Source: a phage
DNA length: 50,975 nucleotides
Sequence record: PZ871100.1
Strand: one strand, 5' to 3'
The position numbers were made by a program, and so were the translations under genes. This document shows, in pieces, positions 29,000 to 47,467 of this stretch; the stretch's first letter is position 1; each line of letters opens with the position of its first letter. The notes under the pieces were generated by a model. The model was not told the origin of the DNA and searched no databases. It worked only from the letters and a program-made list of their open reading frames with translations.

Positions 29000-29042
29000 A
29001 TAGCATTTTTTGTTAAACGATGATTTAATGATTGTGTATTAT
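29000..29042 (+). promoter_or_regulatory. conserved-box promoter-like unit (box ATAGCATTTTTTGTTAAACG + 17 nt + TATTAT), helicase operon
   Basis: Box 29000-29019, -10-like hexamer 29037-29042; divergent from HTH gene. Confidence 0.55.
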
Positions 29043-29075
29043 ACACGCCAAATGGCATTACTCAAAGGTTTTAGA

Positions 29076-31121
29076 ATGATTCCAAACATTGAAAAGCAAA
29101 TATCAGCACTTGGCGAAGCGGTAATTAAATCCATTCAGGAGAGATTCACTGTTGGCGATATTGTGCCTTACCCTTACCAGTGCGTTGCATACGCTGAGAT
29201 CGCAAAGCGTATGAAAAATTATGAGCATCCATTCTTTGTTAAAGCGTCCGTATCTGCTGGCAAAACATTGATGTTTGCAATGGTTGCTCACCAGTGCCGG
29301 AAAATGGGCTTGAAAATGATGGTCCTTGCTCGCCAGGCTGAGATTGTAGATCAGGATTCTGAAGAGATAACAAATCTTGGTGTGCCGAACTCCATCTATT
29401 GTGCAGGACTGAAGACAAAAAGCGCATACTTTCCGATCGTTGTTGGTTCTGAGGGAACTGTAGTTAATGGACTGTTTAAAGCGCTTGGCGACTATGTTCC
29501 GCACGTTATCGGGATTGACGAATGTCACCAGGTGGATTGGGAAGACCTTGCCGACGCAATAGAGAAAGACGAATCATTTTTACAAATGACGACGAAGAAA
29601 GGCGAAAAAGTACCAAATCCAGATTATGACATAACAAAGGGAAGCAGGAACAGAAATACAGAGTTCCTGATTGGTGAGGATGGCTTGCCAATAGAGGGAA
29701 CAGGCCGCACACAATACACTGTCATTATCATGGAAATGATGCGCCGCTGCAGGAAAGCATATGGCCATGAACTGCGCATATTTGGCATGACTGGATCGGA
29801 GTTTCGCGGCGTAGTCCCGATCTTGGTAGAAGACAAAAAACAGAAAGGATTCTGGCGTGAACAGGTTACTAATATTGACACCAACTACCTGATCAAATTC
29901 GGTTCTGTTGTGCCAACAAATTTTGGCGACGTTGGCGATCTAGGGTATGACCTTTCAGAGTTTGAGGCATCCAGTGAGGATGGGGTTGCAGACTTTGACG
30001 CTAAAACGCTTCGCAGGATGGAACAAAAAATTCATGAAGAAGCGACCATGACAAAGCGCATCATGGCGAAAGTTCACGAGATCTGTAAAAACCGTAACGG
30101 CGTACTTGTGACATGTGCAGGAGAAAGGCATTGCAAAGAGGCTTCGGCGGCGTTGCCGCCTGGAACGACTTACAGGATCATTACTGGTAAGACTGGCGAT
30201 AACCAGCGCAAGGAGTGGTTGAAAGAAGCATACGAGGGAAAGGTTAAATACATCTTCCAGGTGCAGGCGCTAACTACTGGCGTTAACGTGCCGTTTTGGG
30301 ATACGTCTGTTATTCTGCGTAAGATTGGATCTCTTACGTTGCTGATTCAGCTTTTAGGGCGCGGAATGCGACTACTTAAGAAGTGGCATAAGGAGCAAGG
30401 ATTCCAGAAAGATGATCATCTCGTCATGGATTTTTCAGGAACGATGGACGAGCTGGGTGAGCTTTATTTTGATCCGATACTGGAACAGGCGCAGCACCAG
30501 AAGCGATTCAGAAATGGTAAAGATCCGAAGCCTTGTCCTGTTTGCGGAACTCTTAACAGCTATTATGCTCGTCGTTGTATGCACGTAGACGAAAACGGCA
30601 ACAGATGCGAGTGGTTCTTTAAATTCAGGACATGTGATGATCAGATTGACCCGCGCACTAAAAAGATTATTCATCGCGGTTGCGGAACTAAGAATGATAT
30701 TGCGGCCAGGGTATGCAGACATTGCGACATGTCATTGATTGACCCTAACGAGAAGTTAAGCGGAAAGCACTACACAAAAAACGACTGGTTCCAAGTGCAA
30801 TCTTTCGCGGTTGATATGACGAAAAACCAGAAAGGGATAATATTTAATTATGAGCTTTCCGATGGCATAGATACTTTCAAGGCGAGAGAGATATTTTTCC
30901 CTGAGTCTGAGAGCCAAATTTGCCGCGCAAAATGGCGAAGCGTTGCTCTTAAGCATATACCGGATCGCCGTGTCGCTGGTATGGTGGCGAGCTATCGCAA
31001 TGCGCGTAAAATCATGCAATATGTGAATCACATCATGCCGCCATCGCGTGTGACTCACCGCAAGACTAGCAAGGGCGAAGATAATTTGTACAAGAAGGAA
31101 TTTAATTATGGCAATGACTGA
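29076..31121 (+). CDS. SF2 helicase (DECH box) with C-terminal Cys-rich zinc-finger-like region
   Basis: Walker A-like SAGKTL, DECH motif GIDECHQ, C-terminal CPVCG...C...C clusters; start ambiguous (29052 or 29076). Confidence 0.75.
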   Translation: MIPNIEKQISALGEAVIKSIQERFTVGDIVPYPYQCVAYAEIAKRMKNYEHPFFVKASVSAGKTLMFAMVAHQCRKMGLKMMVLARQAEIVDQDSEEITNLGVPNSIYCAGLKTKSAYFPIVVGSEGTVVNGLFKALGDYVPHVIGIDECHQVDWEDLADAIEKDESFLQMTTKKGEKVPNPDYDITKGSRNRNTEFLIGEDGLPIEGTGRTQYTVIIMEMMRRCRKAYGHELRIFGMTGSEFRGVVPILVEDKKQKGFWREQVTNIDTNYLIKFGSVVPTNFGDVGDLGYDLSEFEASSEDGVADFDAKTLRRMEQKIHEEATMTKRIMAKVHEICKNRNGVLVTCAGERHCKEASAALPPGTTYRIITGKTGDNQRKEWLKEAYEGKVKYIFQVQALTTGVNVPFWDTSVILRKIGSLTLLIQLLGRGMRLLKKWHKEQGFQKDDHLVMDFSGTMDELGELYFDPILEQAQHQKRFRNGKDPKPCPVCGTLNSYYARRCMHVDENGNRCEWFFKFRTCDDQIDPRTKKIIHRGCGTKNDIAARVCRHCDMSLIDPNEKLSGKHYTKNDWFQVQSFAVDMTKNQKGIIFNYELSDGIDTFKAREIFFPESESQICRAKWRSVALKHIPDRRVAGMVASYRNARKIMQYVNHIMPPSRVTHRKTSKGEDNLYKKEFNYGND

Positions 31122-31527
31122 TAAAGGCGATTATCTGGAGTTTTACGAAAGAGATCCGACAGATACGCTAAAAGAGGAATCGCACCAGATCGGGGCGTTT
31201 CAATGGTTGACTTATGCATACCCTGAATTGCTGGCATGGCATACGAAAAACGAGGGCGACAAGGGGATCGCTACAGCAATGATGGATCAGCAAGCTGGGC
31301 TTGTTAAGGGCGTAAGTGATTTTATCATCCTGATTGGATTAAAAGGCCGTTACCCGTTCGCGGCAATTGAGATGAAGCGCGTCAATAAGTCCGGCAAGGG
31401 TAAGGCTTCACCAGTCAGCAAAGAGCAAAAAGCCTTCTTGCGACGTGTGCGTGAGCTTGGCGGATTCGCCGCCGTAACATACGGATATAAGCAATTCATG
31501 ATCGCTGTAGAATACATGATGAAATAG
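31108..31527 (+). CDS. VRR-NUC domain nuclease
   Basis: 139 aa; SDFIIL...AIEMKR...KEQKAF motif arrangement of PD-(D/E)XK VRR-NUC. Confidence 0.65.
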   Translation: MAMTDKGDYLEFYERDPTDTLKEESHQIGAFQWLTYAYPELLAWHTKNEGDKGIATAMMDQQAGLVKGVSDFIILIGLKGRYPFAAIEMKRVNKSGKGKASPVSKEQKAFLRRVRELGGFAAVTYGYKQFMIAVEYMMK

Positions 31528-31601: not shown

Positions 31602-32303
31602 ATGAGCAAAGAAACCGAAGTGACATTTGAACAAATAGAACGCGAAACATTCATTGGCAATGCTCTTGCTACTGGTGGTCATTACCAGGCTGTTAAACCA
31701 AATCAATATTTCAAAGTGACTGGCAACCGCTATAACGGCAGCAATACGCCGGACGTTGTGCGCGATTTGTGGTCTACGCCGTCTGAGGTTGTCACATGGA
31801 TGGAAAGCGAATACGGTGATTATGACATCGACGCGGCTGCAAGCAAAGAAAATTCTGTATGTGAAAAATTCTACAGCAAGGAAACAAATTGCTTAAAGCG
31901 TTGGTGGGGTAGTAACAAGCATATATGGCTGAATCCGCCGTACAGCAATATAACGCCTTTCGTTAAGAAAGCGATTGAGCAAATGGAGCACAATAACCAG
32001 ATCGACATTCTGTTACCTTGCGACACATCTACAGGATGGTTTTATGAGGCACAACAGAAAGCAGCGGAAATTATCTGGATCACTGGCGAAGTTTATCAGG
32101 AGGAAGGAACAGAATATTCCCGCACAGGACGCCTTGCGTTTACCTCGGCTCTTACAGGTAAACCAGTGCAGGGCAACAACAAAGGAAGCGTTATTTTCAT
32201 CATGCGCGAACTTAAAGAAGGTGAGCAGCAGAAAACGCGATACGTTAAAATCAGCGACATTTGCCCTTCGGTGGCAGACCGTCGCGCACGGAAACGGAGC
32301 TAA
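31602..32303 (+). CDS. DNA N6-adenine methyltransferase (phage Dam-like)
   Basis: 233 aa; catalytic NPPYS motif (WLNPPYSN). Confidence 0.7.
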   Translation: MSKETEVTFEQIERETFIGNALATGGHYQAVKPNQYFKVTGNRYNGSNTPDVVRDLWSTPSEVVTWMESEYGDYDIDAAASKENSVCEKFYSKETNCLKRWWGSNKHIWLNPPYSNITPFVKKAIEQMEHNNQIDILLPCDTSTGWFYEAQQKAAEIIWITGEVYQEEGTEYSRTGRLAFTSALTGKPVQGNNKGSVIFIMRELKEGEQQKTRYVKISDICPSVADRRARKRS

Positions 32304-32307
32304 AGCC

Positions 32308-32565
32308 ATGCAAAAAGAAAGAAGCATTTATTTAAATGAAACTGGAAAGTGGTTGTTATTTCGCGCTATGGTATGCGATGCACTTGATAAAAACCCTAAC
32401 GTGAAAAAGATGATTGATTGCGATCCGTGGGAATTTTCAAGCGCATTAGATATGAGCTTTGAGGAGACAAAAAAACTACCGCTTGAAAAATGGAGCGAGC
32501 AAATCAGAAATGACATGCAAGAATTTGTCGATTCGTGGAATTTTCAGCACGGAATGATCCACTAA
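32308..32565 (+). CDS. hypothetical protein
   Basis: 85 aa from ATG 32308; stop TAG embedded in promoter box. Confidence 0.4.
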   Translation: MQKERSIYLNETGKWLLFRAMVCDALDKNPNVKKMIDCDPWEFSSALDMSFEETKKLPLEKWSEQIRNDMQEFVDSWNFQHGMIH

Positions 32566-32608
32566 TAGCACTTTTTGTTAAAACGCCCGACCTTGTGTCG
32601 GGCATAAT
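32565..32608 (+). promoter_or_regulatory. conserved-box promoter-like unit
   Basis: Box 32565-32584, spacer inverted repeat GCCCGAC...GTCGGGC, CATAAT 32603-32608, leader CATCAAAACGA. Confidence 0.6.
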
Positions 32609-32640
32609 TATTTCATCAAAACGAACAAGAGGAAAATAAA

Positions 32641-32820
32641 ATGGTTGTTTACGATCCACGCGCTTTTAAAATTGCTCAAGAAGTTTCACGCGAATCTGTT
32701 GCTGGCGGTTCGGTTAACGGCTATCAGTTTGATTGGTCGGCAGCAATGACCCTGCTTAAGGTTGCATATGGTCACGCGCCAATTGAAACAGCGGAGGAAT
32801 ATTATAAGCATGAAGGTTGA
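32641..32820 (+). CDS. hypothetical small protein (59 aa)
   Basis: Below ORF-track cutoff; ATG 32641 with AGAGGA RBS downstream of promoter unit. Confidence 0.4.
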   Translation: MVVYDPRAFKIAQEVSRESVAGGSVNGYQFDWSAAMTLLKVAYGHAPIETAEEYYKHEG

Positions 32821-33052
32821 ACAAGGTAGGCAGGCCGTATGGGATCACGCAAAGGAATGCGGGATAGCAGAAGACATAGCCAGGATAGCGAAATATTTTG
32901 ATATTGCTGACATAAGCATTATCAGCGGCGACAAAATGACATTTCTCAATGAACGACCGCGCAAGATGCATCGCGTACCAGCAATACCAACAAAGATTGA
33001 TTTCAAAGAGGCTATGGCGAAAATTCGCGAGCCGCGCAAATACTACAAATGA
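32810..33052 (+). CDS. hypothetical protein
   Basis: ATG 32810 with GGAGGA RBS; 80 aa. Confidence 0.4.
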   Translation: MKVEQGRQAVWDHAKECGIAEDIARIAKYFDIADISIISGDKMTFLNERPRKMHRVPAIPTKIDFKEAMAKIREPRKYYK

Positions 33053-33150
33053 GGATTATTATCATGTGGCGTTTGTTACTTTTGCCCTTACCTGTTATGA
33101 TGGCGATCTCTATTGTATATGTTGTCATAATGAGATAAGGAGAATTTTTG

Positions 33151-34266
33151 ATGAAGCAAATCAAAATCACAGATGAACAATTTATCAATGAGCGCAAGCA
33201 GGGAAAGACATATAAGCAGATCGCTAGTGAGTATGGCATGAACGTTCGCAGCATTGAGCGACGCGCGGCACGATTAGCAAAGCAAGGTAAAGTTACAACC
33301 ATCGGATCACCTGGTTTTGGTGTTACTGGAGAATCAAAGCTAATTGATAAAGATGGCAATGTGGTTATGACATGGATTAAGACAAGCAAAGACCGCGAAC
33401 AGTTAGAAGCATTAATGCAGGCCGCTATGGATGCATTTAGCGAAGAGGTTCCTCGACTTGATCCACAGCCAGAATCACAAAAGAATTATAGCGAGACGCT
33501 ATCACTGTATCCGATCTTTGACATGCACTTGGGCGCAATGGCGCATAAGCATGAATGCGGCGAGAATTGGGATACAGCAACAGCAGAGCGCGTAATGAAT
33601 AATTTCATTGATTATTCCATCCAGTGTGCGCCGGATAGTGAAAAAGCTGTTTTGCTGATTGGTGGTGATATGCTTCACAGCGACGGACTGGAAGCGGTGA
33701 CACCTGCAAGCGGTCACGTATTGGATCAAGATAGTAGATATGCAAAACTTGTTTATGTTGCCATCCGGTCAGTGCGTCGAGCAATTACAAAGCTGTTATC
33801 AAAACACAAAAACGTCGAGATTCAGATCATTGAAGGCAACCACGACCAAAGCGGCATGATCTGGTTGCGCGCAGCAATGGCGGCAGCATATGAGAATGAG
33901 CCACGAGTGCATGTTGATGTGTCTCCGCGAGTGGTTCATCACACACAATATGGCAAAACGTTCCTGGCATACCATCACGGGCATACTATCCGCAAACCTG
34001 AAACATTGCTAATGATGTGCGCGGCAGACTGGCGCGAAGACTTCGGCAATTCAAAAATGATGTATGCTCACGTAGGGCACTGGCATCATCAAACAGTAAC
34101 TGAAACAAGCCTGGGAATTGTTGAAGTGCATAGCACTATGGCGGCAAAAGATGCATATGCTGCGCGCGGTGGATGGCGTTCTCGTCGCCGTGCGGCTGTT
34201 ATTGTTTATGATAAAGAATACGGAGAAGTAGGGCGATTTATGCATTATCCAGAAATGGCTGGTTGA
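33151..34266 (+). CDS. HTH domain fused to calcineurin-like metallophosphoesterase
   Basis: N-terminal HTH-like KTYKQIASEYGMNVRSIERRAARL; phosphoesterase motifs DMHLG, GGDMLHSDG, EGNHDQ. Confidence 0.6.
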   Translation: MKQIKITDEQFINERKQGKTYKQIASEYGMNVRSIERRAARLAKQGKVTTIGSPGFGVTGESKLIDKDGNVVMTWIKTSKDREQLEALMQAAMDAFSEEVPRLDPQPESQKNYSETLSLYPIFDMHLGAMAHKHECGENWDTATAERVMNNFIDYSIQCAPDSEKAVLLIGGDMLHSDGLEAVTPASGHVLDQDSRYAKLVYVAIRSVRRAITKLLSKHKNVEIQIIEGNHDQSGMIWLRAAMAAAYENEPRVHVDVSPRVVHHTQYGKTFLAYHHGHTIRKPETLLMMCAADWREDFGNSKMMYAHVGHWHHQTVTETSLGIVEVHSTMAAKDAYAARGGWRSRRRAAVIVYDKEYGEVGRFMHYPEMAG

Positions 34267-34309
34267 ACTTTTAATCATTAAAATATAAATATAAATCATC
34301 AATTTAATT

Positions 34310-34339
34310 GGGCGTGGCATTTTGCTTCGCCCTTTTTTT
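34310..34339 (+). terminator. terminator-like hairpin before lysis cassette
   Basis: GGGCG...CGCCC hairpin then TTTTTTT. Confidence 0.5.
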
Positions 34340-34412
34340 ATTCCTTTTTGTGCGTTCAATGGTTAGGATACAATCAATTAATTGTTGACTTTTATCTACA
34401 GGAGATCTAATC

Positions 34413-34628
34413 ATGAAAGATTTTTTAAACGCTGCAACTTCCGGCACTGGCGGCGCGTCAATCACTGGCGCGGTAACTGGTCAAACAACTATTGCAATAG
34501 CCAGCTTCGTTTTGATGGCTGCATTTGGTATGTGGGGCGCTTATCTTCGCTGGCGTGATAGTAAGGCGCTACGTGACGCGCTTGAATGCGGTGATATTAA
34601 GAAAGCTATTGAGATCAGAGGTAAATAA
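34413..34628 (+). CDS. holin (putative, single TM)
   Basis: 71 aa; one hydrophobic helix; charged C-terminus; directly upstream of endolysin with ATGA overlap. Confidence 0.6.
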
Positions 34629-35116
34629 TGAGTATAAAACAAAGAGTGACAGCTGCGGCTTTTGGCGTTGCTCTTGCCCTTACTTCTCCGCTACTGGAGG
34701 AAATAGAAGGAGTAAAACATAAGCCGTACAAAGATATTGCTGGGATATGGACGGTTTGCGCCGGAATAACTGGACCTGACGTAATACCAGGCAAAACGTA
34801 CACACAGAGAGAGTGCGATGCGCTACTGGCAAAGCATATCAAGATCGCAAAGGATGAAGTTGATAAACGTGTGAAGGTTGAGATTCCTGATACAATGCGC
34901 GCAGCGATGTATTCATTCACATACAATGCTGGCACTGGTGCTTTTAGAAATTCAACCATGCTTAAGCTGATTAATAACGGTCGTTATATGGAAGCGTGCA
35001 ATCAGTTATGGCGATGGACAAAATACACCAATCCAAAAACAGGAAAGAAAGAAACGTCTAAAGGACTGCGCAACCGCCGCGCGGTGGAATTTAAATATTG
35101 CATTAAGGATCTGTAA
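34628..35116 (+). CDS. endolysin (phage lysozyme, GH24-like)
   Basis: 162 aa; [26 protein letters not shown] signature region. Confidence 0.8.
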
Positions 35117-35118
35117 TC

Positions 35119-35517
35119 ATGAGAAAGTTATCAGCAATCGCGATCGCTGTTATTTTGTCTGGATGTTCAAGCGTTACGCCACTGACCGGATTAATCGGTA
35201 GTAAGCCGGAAATCACAGCACAGGCAGGAGCGGAGAACGTAAAGCAGACCGTTGGCGTTACCGCAAAGCAGGACACCAGCACGAAACAGGAAACTACAAT
35301 AAAGGAATCTGCGGTTGATAAGGTGGACACTTCCAGCAAGAAGGATTTCACTACGTCAACCATTCAGGCAAACACCATCAAGGCTGATAAAATCCAGGTT
35401 GTGCAGGGTGAGCAAAGGAAGTGGTACGATCCTATAATCTATTGCGCTGCAATTTTCAGTGGTCTTTTGACTATGCTTTACTTTTCCTACCGCAAAGATA
35501 ACAAAAAGGAGGCTTAA
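35119..35517 (+). CDS. unimolecular spanin (T1 gp11-like)
   Basis: 132 aa; N-terminal lipobox ILSGC and C-terminal TM helix; last gene of lysis cassette. Confidence 0.7.
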   Translation: MRKLSAIAIAVILSGCSSVTPLTGLIGSKPEITAQAGAENVKQTVGVTAKQDTSTKQETTIKESAVDKVDTSSKKDFTTSTIQANTIKADKIQVVQGEQRKWYDPIIYCAAIFSGLLTMLYFSYRKDNKKEA

Positions 35518-45249: not shown

Positions 45250-45457
45250 GCGCGTCAAGCACAGGTTTACTGATAACCACGGCGACGCGATCGATGTATA
45301 CAAGTTCGGCGATCGCGTTTTTATTGACGGCACGTTTGAAGGTGGGAGCAGTCCGGATTTTAGGTCGATACTCACCGTTGACCAGGTGCGAAAGCTGGCG
45401 GATAAGTTAAATGATCTGGCAGATGAAATCGAATACAAGCAAATTCATTTTAATTGA
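45236..45457 (+). CDS. hypothetical protein
   Basis: 73 aa; GAGGAAG RBS. Confidence 0.4.
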   Translation: MKTNKRVKHRFTDNHGDAIDVYKFGDRVFIDGTFEGGSSPDFRSILTVDQVRKLADKLNDLADEIEYKQIHFN

Positions 45458-45468
45458 TAGGTTTGATA

Positions 45469-46008
45469 ATGAAAAAATACGAATTTGAACTTTGGGGCAG
45501 CAAATACCATTTTTCAACGAGCAAGCCGATTGTTATCGTTGACCTGGACGGAACGTTATCAGACGGAACGCATCGCTTACACCTTCTTCCGACAGAAGAT
45601 TTGCACCTTACAGAAAGCTGGTCTGAGTTCAATAAGGCGGCTGTTGGCGATTCGCCGATTAAGAGCACGGTTGCAGTGGTTAACGGTTTGTGGATGTCAG
45701 GATTTGCCATCGTTATCCTGACCGGACGCAGCGATGAAGTGATGGAGGACACCTGCAAATGGCTTAACGAAAACGGCATCAAGTACGATGCGTTAATCAT
45801 GCGCCGCAAGGAAGACAATCGCAAAGACACAATAATCAAAGAGGAAGTCTTGCGCGCTATCGGACTGGAAAACATTGTGTGCGCTTTTGATGATTCTCCG
45901 AACGTGGTTAAGCACTTCCGCAGCCTGGGAATCACAACCTATCAGGTAACGGAATACGACAAGCCACATAATCATATCCAATCGCATGGCGTGGAGGAAT
46001 TGAAATGA
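45469..46008 (+). CDS. HAD-superfamily phosphatase (nucleotidase or polynucleotide 3-phosphatase-like)
   Basis: Motif I IVIVDLDGTL (DxDxT), later ILTGR and FDDSPN motifs. Confidence 0.6.
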   Translation: MKKYEFELWGSKYHFSTSKPIVIVDLDGTLSDGTHRLHLLPTEDLHLTESWSEFNKAAVGDSPIKSTVAVVNGLWMSGFAIVILTGRSDEVMEDTCKWLNENGIKYDALIMRRKEDNRKDTIIKEEVLRAIGLENIVCAFDDSPNVVKHFRSLGITTYQVTEYDKPHNHIQSHGVEELK

Positions 46009-46682: not shown

Positions 46683-46876
46683 TTCTTACTATAGCGCATT
46701 CACGCAGTGCGCTATGTTGAGATAACAACATGAGATCATGAAGATGCGAAACTTCGAAAAAATCGTATCCAAGAAGAAGCGATACAGCTACTACGAGCAC
46801 CAAGAGATGAATCAACGCTATCGCAAAAAGCGCCAGCGAAAAGGTAAAAATTCCAGTAAACATGGAGAAAATCAAT

Positions 46877-47467
46877 ATGAAACGCGACATTATCATTCTT
46901 AACGGACCGCCAGGAGTTGGCAAAGATACGCTTGCGGCATACTTAACTGGCCATCGTTACGCAGCCGTTAAAGCGTCGTTTAAGCAACCGATGTTTGATA
47001 TTGCATTCTCCATGCTTGGCGTTTACCTATATGACGAGTTCATTGATCTGTATAACGACCGCGAGCAGAAAGAAAAGCCTCAAGCAATCTTGCAAGGCAA
47101 GTCTCCGCGACAATTCATGATCTGGATTAGCGAAGAAGTCATGAAGCCAGCTTTTGGCGAGCAATATTTTGGGAATCGCATGGTTGAGCAAGTACACGAG
47201 ATGTACAGAGATTTAGCTGTTGTAATTAGTGATGGCGGATTCCCTGAAGAAATCAAACCGCTCGTTAAGGCAGGCCATGAAGTGCACATTTGCCGACTGC
47301 ATCGCGAAGGATTCACGTTTGATGGCGATTCGCGAAACTATATTGACCTGAACGGATACCATCACCGAGTCAAGCATTACGACTTCACAATGATTGATGG
47401 CGAGCCAGAAAAGACTGTTGACGAGATCATCAAAACGGTGCAGTGGAAACACACAAAGATTGAATAG
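46877..47467 (+). CDS. P-loop nucleotide kinase (dNMP kinase or polynucleotide kinase-like)
   Basis: ATG 46877 with GGAG RBS; Walker A NGPPGVGKDT. Confidence 0.55.
   Translation: MKRDIIILNGPPGVGKDTLAAYLTGHRYAAVKASFKQPMFDIAFSMLGVYLYDEFIDLYNDREQKEKPQAILQGKSPRQFMIWISEEVMKPAFGEQYFGNRMVEQVHEMYRDLAVVISDGGFPEEIKPLVKAGHEVHICRLHREGFTFDGDSRNYIDLNGYHHRVKHYDFTMIDGEPEKTVDEIIKTVQWKHTKIE

Follow-up and report, generated by a model that had tools for sequence, protein, structure and literature searches.

Among the closest described systems, Mre11 and SbcD have a capping domain and a C-terminal element that binds Rad50 or SbcC. In phage T5, a metallophosphoesterase (MPE) and a DNA-binding module are supplied as two proteins: A1 (556 aa), a putative metallophosphatase without which host DNA is not degraded, reportedly pairs with the DNA-binding protein A2 as a heterodimer (bioRxiv 10.64898/2026.04.02.716235; 10.1101/866236). 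The nuclease A10ZJ24 gp48 causes damage to the host genome (PMC12287305). It belongs, together with gp47 of mycobacteriophage Bxb1, which acts both in replication and as a recombination directionality factor, to PHROGs 221 and 20266, and both proteins have about 255 aa and no HTH. PdeM and the Pseudomonas "Nuclease MPE", a ligase-associated ssDNA endonuclease, are small stand-alone enzymes tied to DNA repair genes; PdeM is without an HTH and is found in a bacterial context with ligase and the Lhr helicase.

The DNA analysed in this work (50,975 nucleotides, hereafter the window) covers all or nearly all of the genome of a siphovirus in the T1-like genus Hanrivervirus (Drexlerviridae). One gene of this genome encodes an N-terminal HTH fused to an MPE domain, a protein here called HTH-MPE. 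HTH-MPE is similar to Mre11 and SbcD in its fold and motifs, including the DxHLG form of motif I and the GDxxH form of motif II, which we take to be the Mre11/SbcD forms. However, it has no capping domain, because the MPE domain ends six residues before the C-terminus, and no Rad50/SbcC-binding element. A partner of the Rad50/SbcC-type SMC ATPase is also missing from the window, which contains no long coiled-coil ATPase ORF; its large ORFs encode tail and tape-measure proteins, helicases and terminase. Furthermore, HTH-MPE differs from Mre11/SbcD in its N-terminal HTH and beta-hairpin and in a family-specific insert after motif II, and the sequence similarity between them is below threshold. 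Due to the absence of a capping domain and of a Rad50/SbcC partner, HTH-MPE is not a true Mre11/SbcD protein. A reading of this DNA made from the sequence only had suggested an Mre11/SbcD-like nuclease or a phosphatase; its nuclease-like interpretation is reasonable but unproven.

The modules that are separate in T5 A1 and A2 are fused in HTH-MPE, and the place of T5.005, a small membrane-protein gene beside the T5 MPE gene, is taken here by a hydrophobic mini-ORF. However, A1 resembles HTH-MPE only at the superfamily level (hhalign probability of 17%, 20 columns around GNHD), A2 has no similarity to the HTH of HTH-MPE, and the two-step DNA injection of T5 is absent from T1-like phages. Bxb1 gp47 and A10ZJ24 gp48 are not in PHROG 704, the family of HTH-MPE (hhalign 4.6%), and HTH-MPE, which matches PHROG 20266 only at E=0.008, does not belong to PHROG 221 or 20266. 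The sequence matches to PdeM and "Nuclease MPE" are weak and lie around GNHD, with 20.2 bits for the PdeM model (TIGR04123, NCBIfam) against a cut-off of 150. By analogy, the other stand-alone phage MPEs, including A10ZJ24 gp48 and T5 A1 and all linked to HTH-MPE by superfamily membership alone, make a nuclease role plausible for HTH-MPE.

The gene and its domain architecture

HTH-MPE is a real and intact phage gene, and its novelty is low because it is an ordinary, already catalogued core gene of T1-like phages. PHROG 704, "DNA repair exonuclease", matches the protein over its full length (residues 5-370, E=2e-151), and the DNA identity over the gene is 99.7% with EC147, 97.6% with vojen, 97.1% with Bas07 JakobBernoulli and 97.0% with pSf-1. 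The T1 orthologue, ORF16 (CPTT1_064), has a protein identity of 56.6%, does not differ in structure from HTH-MPE of the window, and shares its gene order (helicase, VRR-NUC/resolvase, Dam, small ORFs, HTH-MPE, terminator, lysis genes), an order that is identical in vojen, JakobBernoulli and T1. ORF16 was annotated as an "exonuclease" because of an HHpred match of 99% to E. coli SbcD (4LTY, T1 record), and the name of the PHROG 704 family likewise derives from HHpred similarity to SbcD, without experiment. GenBank records of relatives carry the labels "putative phosphoesterase", "DNA repair exonuclease", "calcineurin-like phosphoesterase domain-containing protein" and "hypothetical protein". 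The N-terminus of HTH-MPE is fixed by an in-frame TAA just upstream of the ATG, and the gene and the protein contain the following features:

33137 to 33142, + strand: Shine-Dalgarno sequence AAGGAG, identified from the sequence, 8 nt 5' of the HTH-MPE ATG and overlapping the stop codon of the mini-ORF
33151 to 34266, + strand: HTH-MPE coding sequence, 371 aa plus stop (ORF list, PHROG 704, DNA identities, T1 annotation)
33172 to 33282, + strand: three-helix HTH, residues 8-44 (helices 8-16, 21-28 and 32-44), LuxR/GerE/sigma-region-4-like
33316 to 33441, + strand: beta-hairpin, residues 56-80, then a helix, residues 82-97, joining the HTH to the catalytic domain (secondary structure, conservation)
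33490 to 34245, + strand: calcineurin-like MPE domain, residues 114-365, with no capping domain after it
33520 to 33528, + strand: motif I, D124-M-H126, followed by L-G (DxHLG form), invariant in alignments A1 and A2
33664 to 33684, + strand: motif II, G172-D173-M-L-H176-S-D178 (GDxxH form), D173 invariant, H176 and D178 at least 90% conserved
33835 to 33846, + strand: motif III, G229-N230-H231-D232, N230 and H231 invariant
33976 to 33984, + strand: motif IV, H276-G277-H278, H276 invariant
34075 to 34086, + strand: motif V, G309-H310-W-H312, G309 and H312 invariant, H310 at least 90% conserved

The sequence-only reading had described an HTH-like segment in front of a complete MPE motif set, and this observation was confirmed, while its interpretation as a whole was partly supported. 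D124xH126, GD173xxH176SD178 and GNHD are all present, as are H276 and GH310xH312, and the catalytic site is intact with all five metal-ligand motifs of the superfamily (DxH, GD, GNH[DE], H, GHxH). In the diverse alignment A2, which comprises 73 relatives with no more than 30-66% identity to the query, D124, H126, D173, N230, H231, H276 and H312 are invariant. Motif II is followed by a near-invariant, family-specific stretch (V183-T184-P185...L191-D192-x-D194-x-R196), in which T184 is invariant and L191, D192, D194 and R196 are at least 90% conserved among the 73 diverse members; the structure model is weak at this stretch (pLDDT <50, residues 178-194). The C-terminal domain has the MPE beta-sandwich fold, and the nearest folds are SbcD, Mre11 and PolD-DP1. 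At the sequence level, the PF00149 score of HTH-MPE (14.1 bits) is under the gathering cut-off of 21.5; 15 of the 73 relatives match PF00149 at E<=0.01, and one of them, P0145, exceeds the cut-off at 25.1 bits. With HTH-MPE alone as the query, PDB sequences gave no match, and the A2 family profile found T. maritima SbcD/Mre11 weakly (E=0.08-0.2) as well as the Pseudomonas ssDNA "Nuclease MPE".

The N-terminal segment has the three-helix HTH fold and is basic, with a net charge of +7 over residues 1-50. For HTH-MPE alone, the Pfam scores are below the cut-offs (HTH_28, 18.6 versus 25, E=0.002; Sigma70_r4_2, 15.7 versus 25.7, E=0.012). Across the family, HTH_1, HTH_8, HTH_50, Sigma70_r4_2, HTH_28, HTH_23 and GerE each match 6-19 of the 73 relatives, the relative P0224 clears the curated cut-offs for Sigma70_r4, HTH_11 and HTH_24, and the family profile finds GerE, RhlR and NarL-type domains in PDB with E-values from 0.011. 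Because of these matches across the relatives and of the profile in PDB, the segment does score as a DNA-binding fold, which the sequence-only reading had named as the point on which its view could fail, and the HTH is predicted to bind DNA. The HTH is also the fastest-evolving region of the protein, with 16% identity to distant members versus 40% for the MPE domain; in the hairpin, W75 is invariant in two of three alignments and nearly so in the remaining one. A search for operator-like or iteron-like repeats near the gene (32300 to 34700) found only short repeats at chance level, and the "site-targeted" action proposed in the earlier reading gained no support.

Distribution and genomic context

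The HTH-MPE fusion is old and widespread. At E<=1e-3, 5,291 clusters (50% identity) match, and 1,317 do so at E<=1e-30; among the best 150 clusters, 137 have lengths of 355-425 aa, nearly all of the top matches measuring 370-420 aa, and most start with an HTH-like segment, so that the fusion is conserved in related phages, a point that the sequence-only reading had put forward for checking. By tblastn, the family was found in 2,048 of 50,697 phage records (about 4%), with at least 80% of the query covered in 1,955 of these. The lineages include Drexlerviridae, Dhillonvirus, Jerseyvirus, Kagunavirus, lambdoid mEp phages and E. coli prophages, and phages of Vibrio, Rhizobium and Sulfitobacter. 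An exonuclease-holin-endolysin-spanin block has been reported in 508 of 522 Drexlerviridae (PMC13164509). The homologue of the Campylobacter myovirus CP30A (317 aa) is without the HTH and keeps the hairpin and the MPE domain, aligning from profile position 78. A profile search of genome contigs with alignment A1 gave two loci only, both probably phage contigs within assemblies.

In the window, HTH-MPE ends a plus-strand block that consists of a helicase gene (29010-31121), a VRR-NUC gene (31108-31527), Dam (31602-32303), three small ORFs and the mini-ORF. The features that border HTH-MPE, and a gene pair that follows it in other phages, are:

33049 to 33138, + strand: hydrophobic mini-ORF, 29 aa from the ATG at 33049 (or 24 aa from the ATG at 33064), MRIIIMWRLLLLPLPVMMAISIVYVVIMR, GRAVY 1.88
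34310 to 34339, + strand: intrinsic-terminator-like hairpin (GGGCG.GGCA...UGCU.CGCCC) with a U7 run, between HTH-MPE and the holin promoter and lysis cassette
L018 5128-6185, L019 5156-6279 and L023 2666-3732: pair of HAD_PNKP and PHROG 139 genes after HTH-MPE

The hairpin at 34310-34339 has a predicted RNA folding energy of -14.6 kcal/mol (z=-3.58), and none of 200 shuffled sequences was equally stable; the T1 record contains an annotated rho-independent terminator at the matching position. The holin, endolysin and spanin genes (34413-35517) lie past this hairpin. A second terminator-like hairpin on the plus strand (32585-32603, GCCCGAC...GTCGGGC with a T-rich tail) lies in the gap that separates the 80-aa ORF following Dam from the small ORF after it, and may split the region from Dam to HTH-MPE into two transcription units.

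The mini-ORF is unannotated in any record. Its ATG at 33049 overlaps the TGA of the upstream gene (ATGA), and equivalents of 23-29 codons (GRAVY 1.6-1.9, one predicted transmembrane helix) are present in T1 (L003 5919-5990), LeonhardEuler (L024 1419-1490), Kyungwonvirus ESP2949-1 (L021 3908-3991) and Webervirus KLPPOU149 (L023 1417-1494). It is found directly 5' of HTH-MPE in four Drexlerviridae genera, in which the peptides have diverged while the frame and the hydrophobicity are kept. The stop codon of the mini-ORF ends 3-12 nt upstream of the start of the MPE gene, whose Shine-Dalgarno sequence it overlaps or abuts in all but Webervirus. No match to the mini-ORF was found in Pfam or PHROG. 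It is predicted to encode a single transmembrane peptide, and it is likely to be translationally coupled to the HTH-MPE gene. A sigma-70-like promoter match at 33073-33101 was discounted, being inside the mini-ORF in a region with fewer promoter-like matches than shuffled sequence.

Elsewhere, the neighbours of HTH-MPE vary and are mostly genes of DNA or nucleotide metabolism: a replisome-organiser-like gene and DnaB in lambdoid prophages, DNA ligase and RusA genes in CP30A, a DNA polymerase A gene in L016, and dUTPase and thymidylate synthase genes in an N4-like phage. In at least eight unrelated lineages (L005, L007, L008, L012, L014, L015, L016 and the window, 34413-35517), HTH-MPE also borders the lysis cassette on one side or the other; the coding regions overlap in some of the lineages, and in several HTH-MPE is the last gene of the operon of lysis or late genes. 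It lies well away from the lysis genes in lambdoid prophages and in CP30A. In the phage of the window, a functional tie to the lysis cassette was rejected in view of the strong terminator-like hairpin and the annotated T1 terminator. In Guernseyvirinae (Jerseyvirus, Kagunavirus), HTH-MPE is located within a small opposite-strand island of the tail-gene module, and a superinfection-immunity gene of the Imm_superinfect type (PF14373), with two transmembrane helices, is directly 5' of it (L006 4747-4926, L018 3772-3963).

Proposed function and rival explanations

With a probability that we put at roughly 0.55, HTH-MPE is a DNA-tethered metal-dependent nuclease for phage DNA replication, recombination or host-DNA breakdown. 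Within the calcineurin-like superfamily it would fall in the nuclease branch, as a stand-alone phosphodiesterase with two metal ions, probably Mn2+, and its basic N-terminal LuxR/GerE-type HTH would hold the enzyme on double-stranded DNA, the presumed substrate. The most likely activity would be exo- and/or endonucleolytic DNA cleavage, and the most likely biological role would be in the phage's own DNA metabolism, where ends or intermediates could be processed for recombination-dependent replication and/or host DNA could be broken down to nucleotides for a phage without polymerase or nucleotide-synthesis genes. The phage encodes a RecE-like exonuclease, Erf, SSB, a primase and two helicases, and no polymerase; genes for nucleotide synthesis are also absent. 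T1 has a mapped host-DNA-degradation gene. Literature searches for the classical T1 work ("gene 2.5 / host DNA degradation") and for PHROG 704 or VOG9929 found nothing, and Drexlerviridae go unmentioned in two phage gene-essentiality preprints. The family, a core family in T1-like phages, is one of the commoner phage genes without a tested function, and among its T1-like carriers are phages that are simple to work with in the laboratory, for instance T1 and the BASEL Drexlerviridae phages. Knowledge of the substrate of the enzyme and of the target of the HTH would clarify replication or nucleotide supply in polymerase-less siphoviruses, and would show whether the label "DNA repair exonuclease", carried by many phage records on fold similarity alone, is right or needs correction.

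A more specific form of this proposal, which we regard as quite doubtful, is that HTH-MPE and the coupled single-pass membrane micro-peptide form a membrane-proximal DNA nuclease, comparable to a fused T5 A1-A2, that degrades host or superinfecting DNA at the envelope. Such an arrangement would explain the recurrent adjacency to lysis and membrane-protein genes, the adjacency to Imm-type superinfection-immunity genes in Guernseyvirinae, and a DNA-binding domain that is conserved in function and yet fast-evolving in sequence.

Four rival explanations were considered, all of which are weaker than the reading of HTH-MPE as a DNA-tethered nuclease. The HAD_PNKP (Pfam 71-81 bits, cut-off 27.6) and P-loop kinase (PHROG 139) genes directly 3' of HTH-MPE in Webervirus, Kagunavirus and Klebsiella phage RCIP0053 suggest end-healing or repair, in which the MPE would remove a 3'-phosphate, a 2',3'-cyclic phosphate or other 3'-blocking groups and, with the PNKP-type HAD 3'-phosphatase, the P-loop kinase and a ligase, mend DNA or RNA after cleavage by defence nucleases of the host or after damage in replication. 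The PNKP phosphatase and kinase are the commonest genes directly after the exonuclease in SH3-less Drexlerviridae (PMC13164509). Both genes are present in the window (45454-46008 and 46862-47467), the CP30A homologue lies beside a DNA ligase gene, and the weak match to the ligase-associated nuclease PdeM is in agreement with this explanation. Bacterial Pnkp carries an MPE-type end-healing domain. However, the adjacency is not universal, and in the window the two genes are 11-13 kb from HTH-MPE and about 850 nt apart. PHROG 139 is named dNMP kinase, for which nucleotide salvage fits equally well, the PdeM score is 20 bits where the cut-off is 150, and an HTH of the dsDNA type would be unexpected for tRNA repair. 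End-healing is thus considered unlikely. A transcription regulator, in which the LuxR/sigma-region-4-like HTH controls late or lysis genes and the MPE is a sensory or effector module, is less likely still. HTHs of this type are frequent in transcription activators, and the lysis-cassette adjacency in at least eight unrelated lineages is the place of late regulators such as lambda Q, but the invariance of the catalytic residues in a protein whose HTH is the least conserved region, and the existence of the HTH-less CP30A member, argue against regulation as the function. In addition, both here and in T1 a terminator stands between the gene and the holin promoter, no repeated operator-like sequence is nearby, and lambdoid prophages and CP30A have the gene away from the lysis genes.

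A small-molecule phosphodiesterase could, for example, break down immune signals made of cyclic nucleotides or oligonucleotides, or second messengers of another nucleotide type, and would then act in anti-defence. A counter-defence role had been among the possibilities raised in the sequence-only reading; it found no support here. It is hard to see what such an enzyme would do with a conserved DNA-binding domain, no PADLOC match was obtained, the best matches of HTH-MPE are nucleases, and the gene belongs to the core of 508 of 522 Drexlerviridae (PMC13164509), unlike accessory anti-defence genes, all of which makes this explanation very unlikely. A protein Ser/Thr phosphatase resembling lambda NinI would belong to the same superfamily as HTH-MPE, and lambdoid phages do carry a Ser/Thr phosphatase of the NinI type. 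However, the PPP signatures (GDxHG, GDxVDRG, GNHE) are missing from HTH-MPE, which reads FDMHLG, GGDMLHSD and GNHD at these places, and this explanation is the most improbable of those considered.

HNH genes beside HTH-MPE and unexpected host labels

HNH endonuclease genes, labelled in the records as HNH or homing endonucleases, are located directly 3' of HTH-MPE in four unrelated lineages, represented by T1 (L003 7207-7689), the lambdoid mEp515 (L004 6070-6624), Jerseyvirus Ijeoma (L006 6159-6659) and Vibrio phage 98E28-2 (L007 7160-7669), with 34-62% mutual identity; the window does not contain this HNH gene. This recurrence suggests that the downstream HNH gene encodes a free-standing homing endonuclease aimed at the conserved HTH-MPE gene or its flank. 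The possibility that HTH-MPE itself is a homing endonuclease was rejected, since it is core and syntenic in Drexlerviridae, whereas homing genes are sporadic.

T1-like versions of HTH-MPE were also found in about 20 records labelled "Campylobacter phage", with an identity of up to 95% for MG065636 "Campylobacter phage A16a", and in one labelled "Streptococcus phage" (MBBL140), with an identity of 79%. Furthermore, a Nitratidesulfovibrio assembly (L026, a Nitratidesulfovibrio liaohensis contig) and a Bacillota MAG contain HTH-MPE at 56-58% identity. These oddly labelled Campylobacter, Streptococcus and assembly hits resemble cases of coliphage contamination or of mislabelled hosts.
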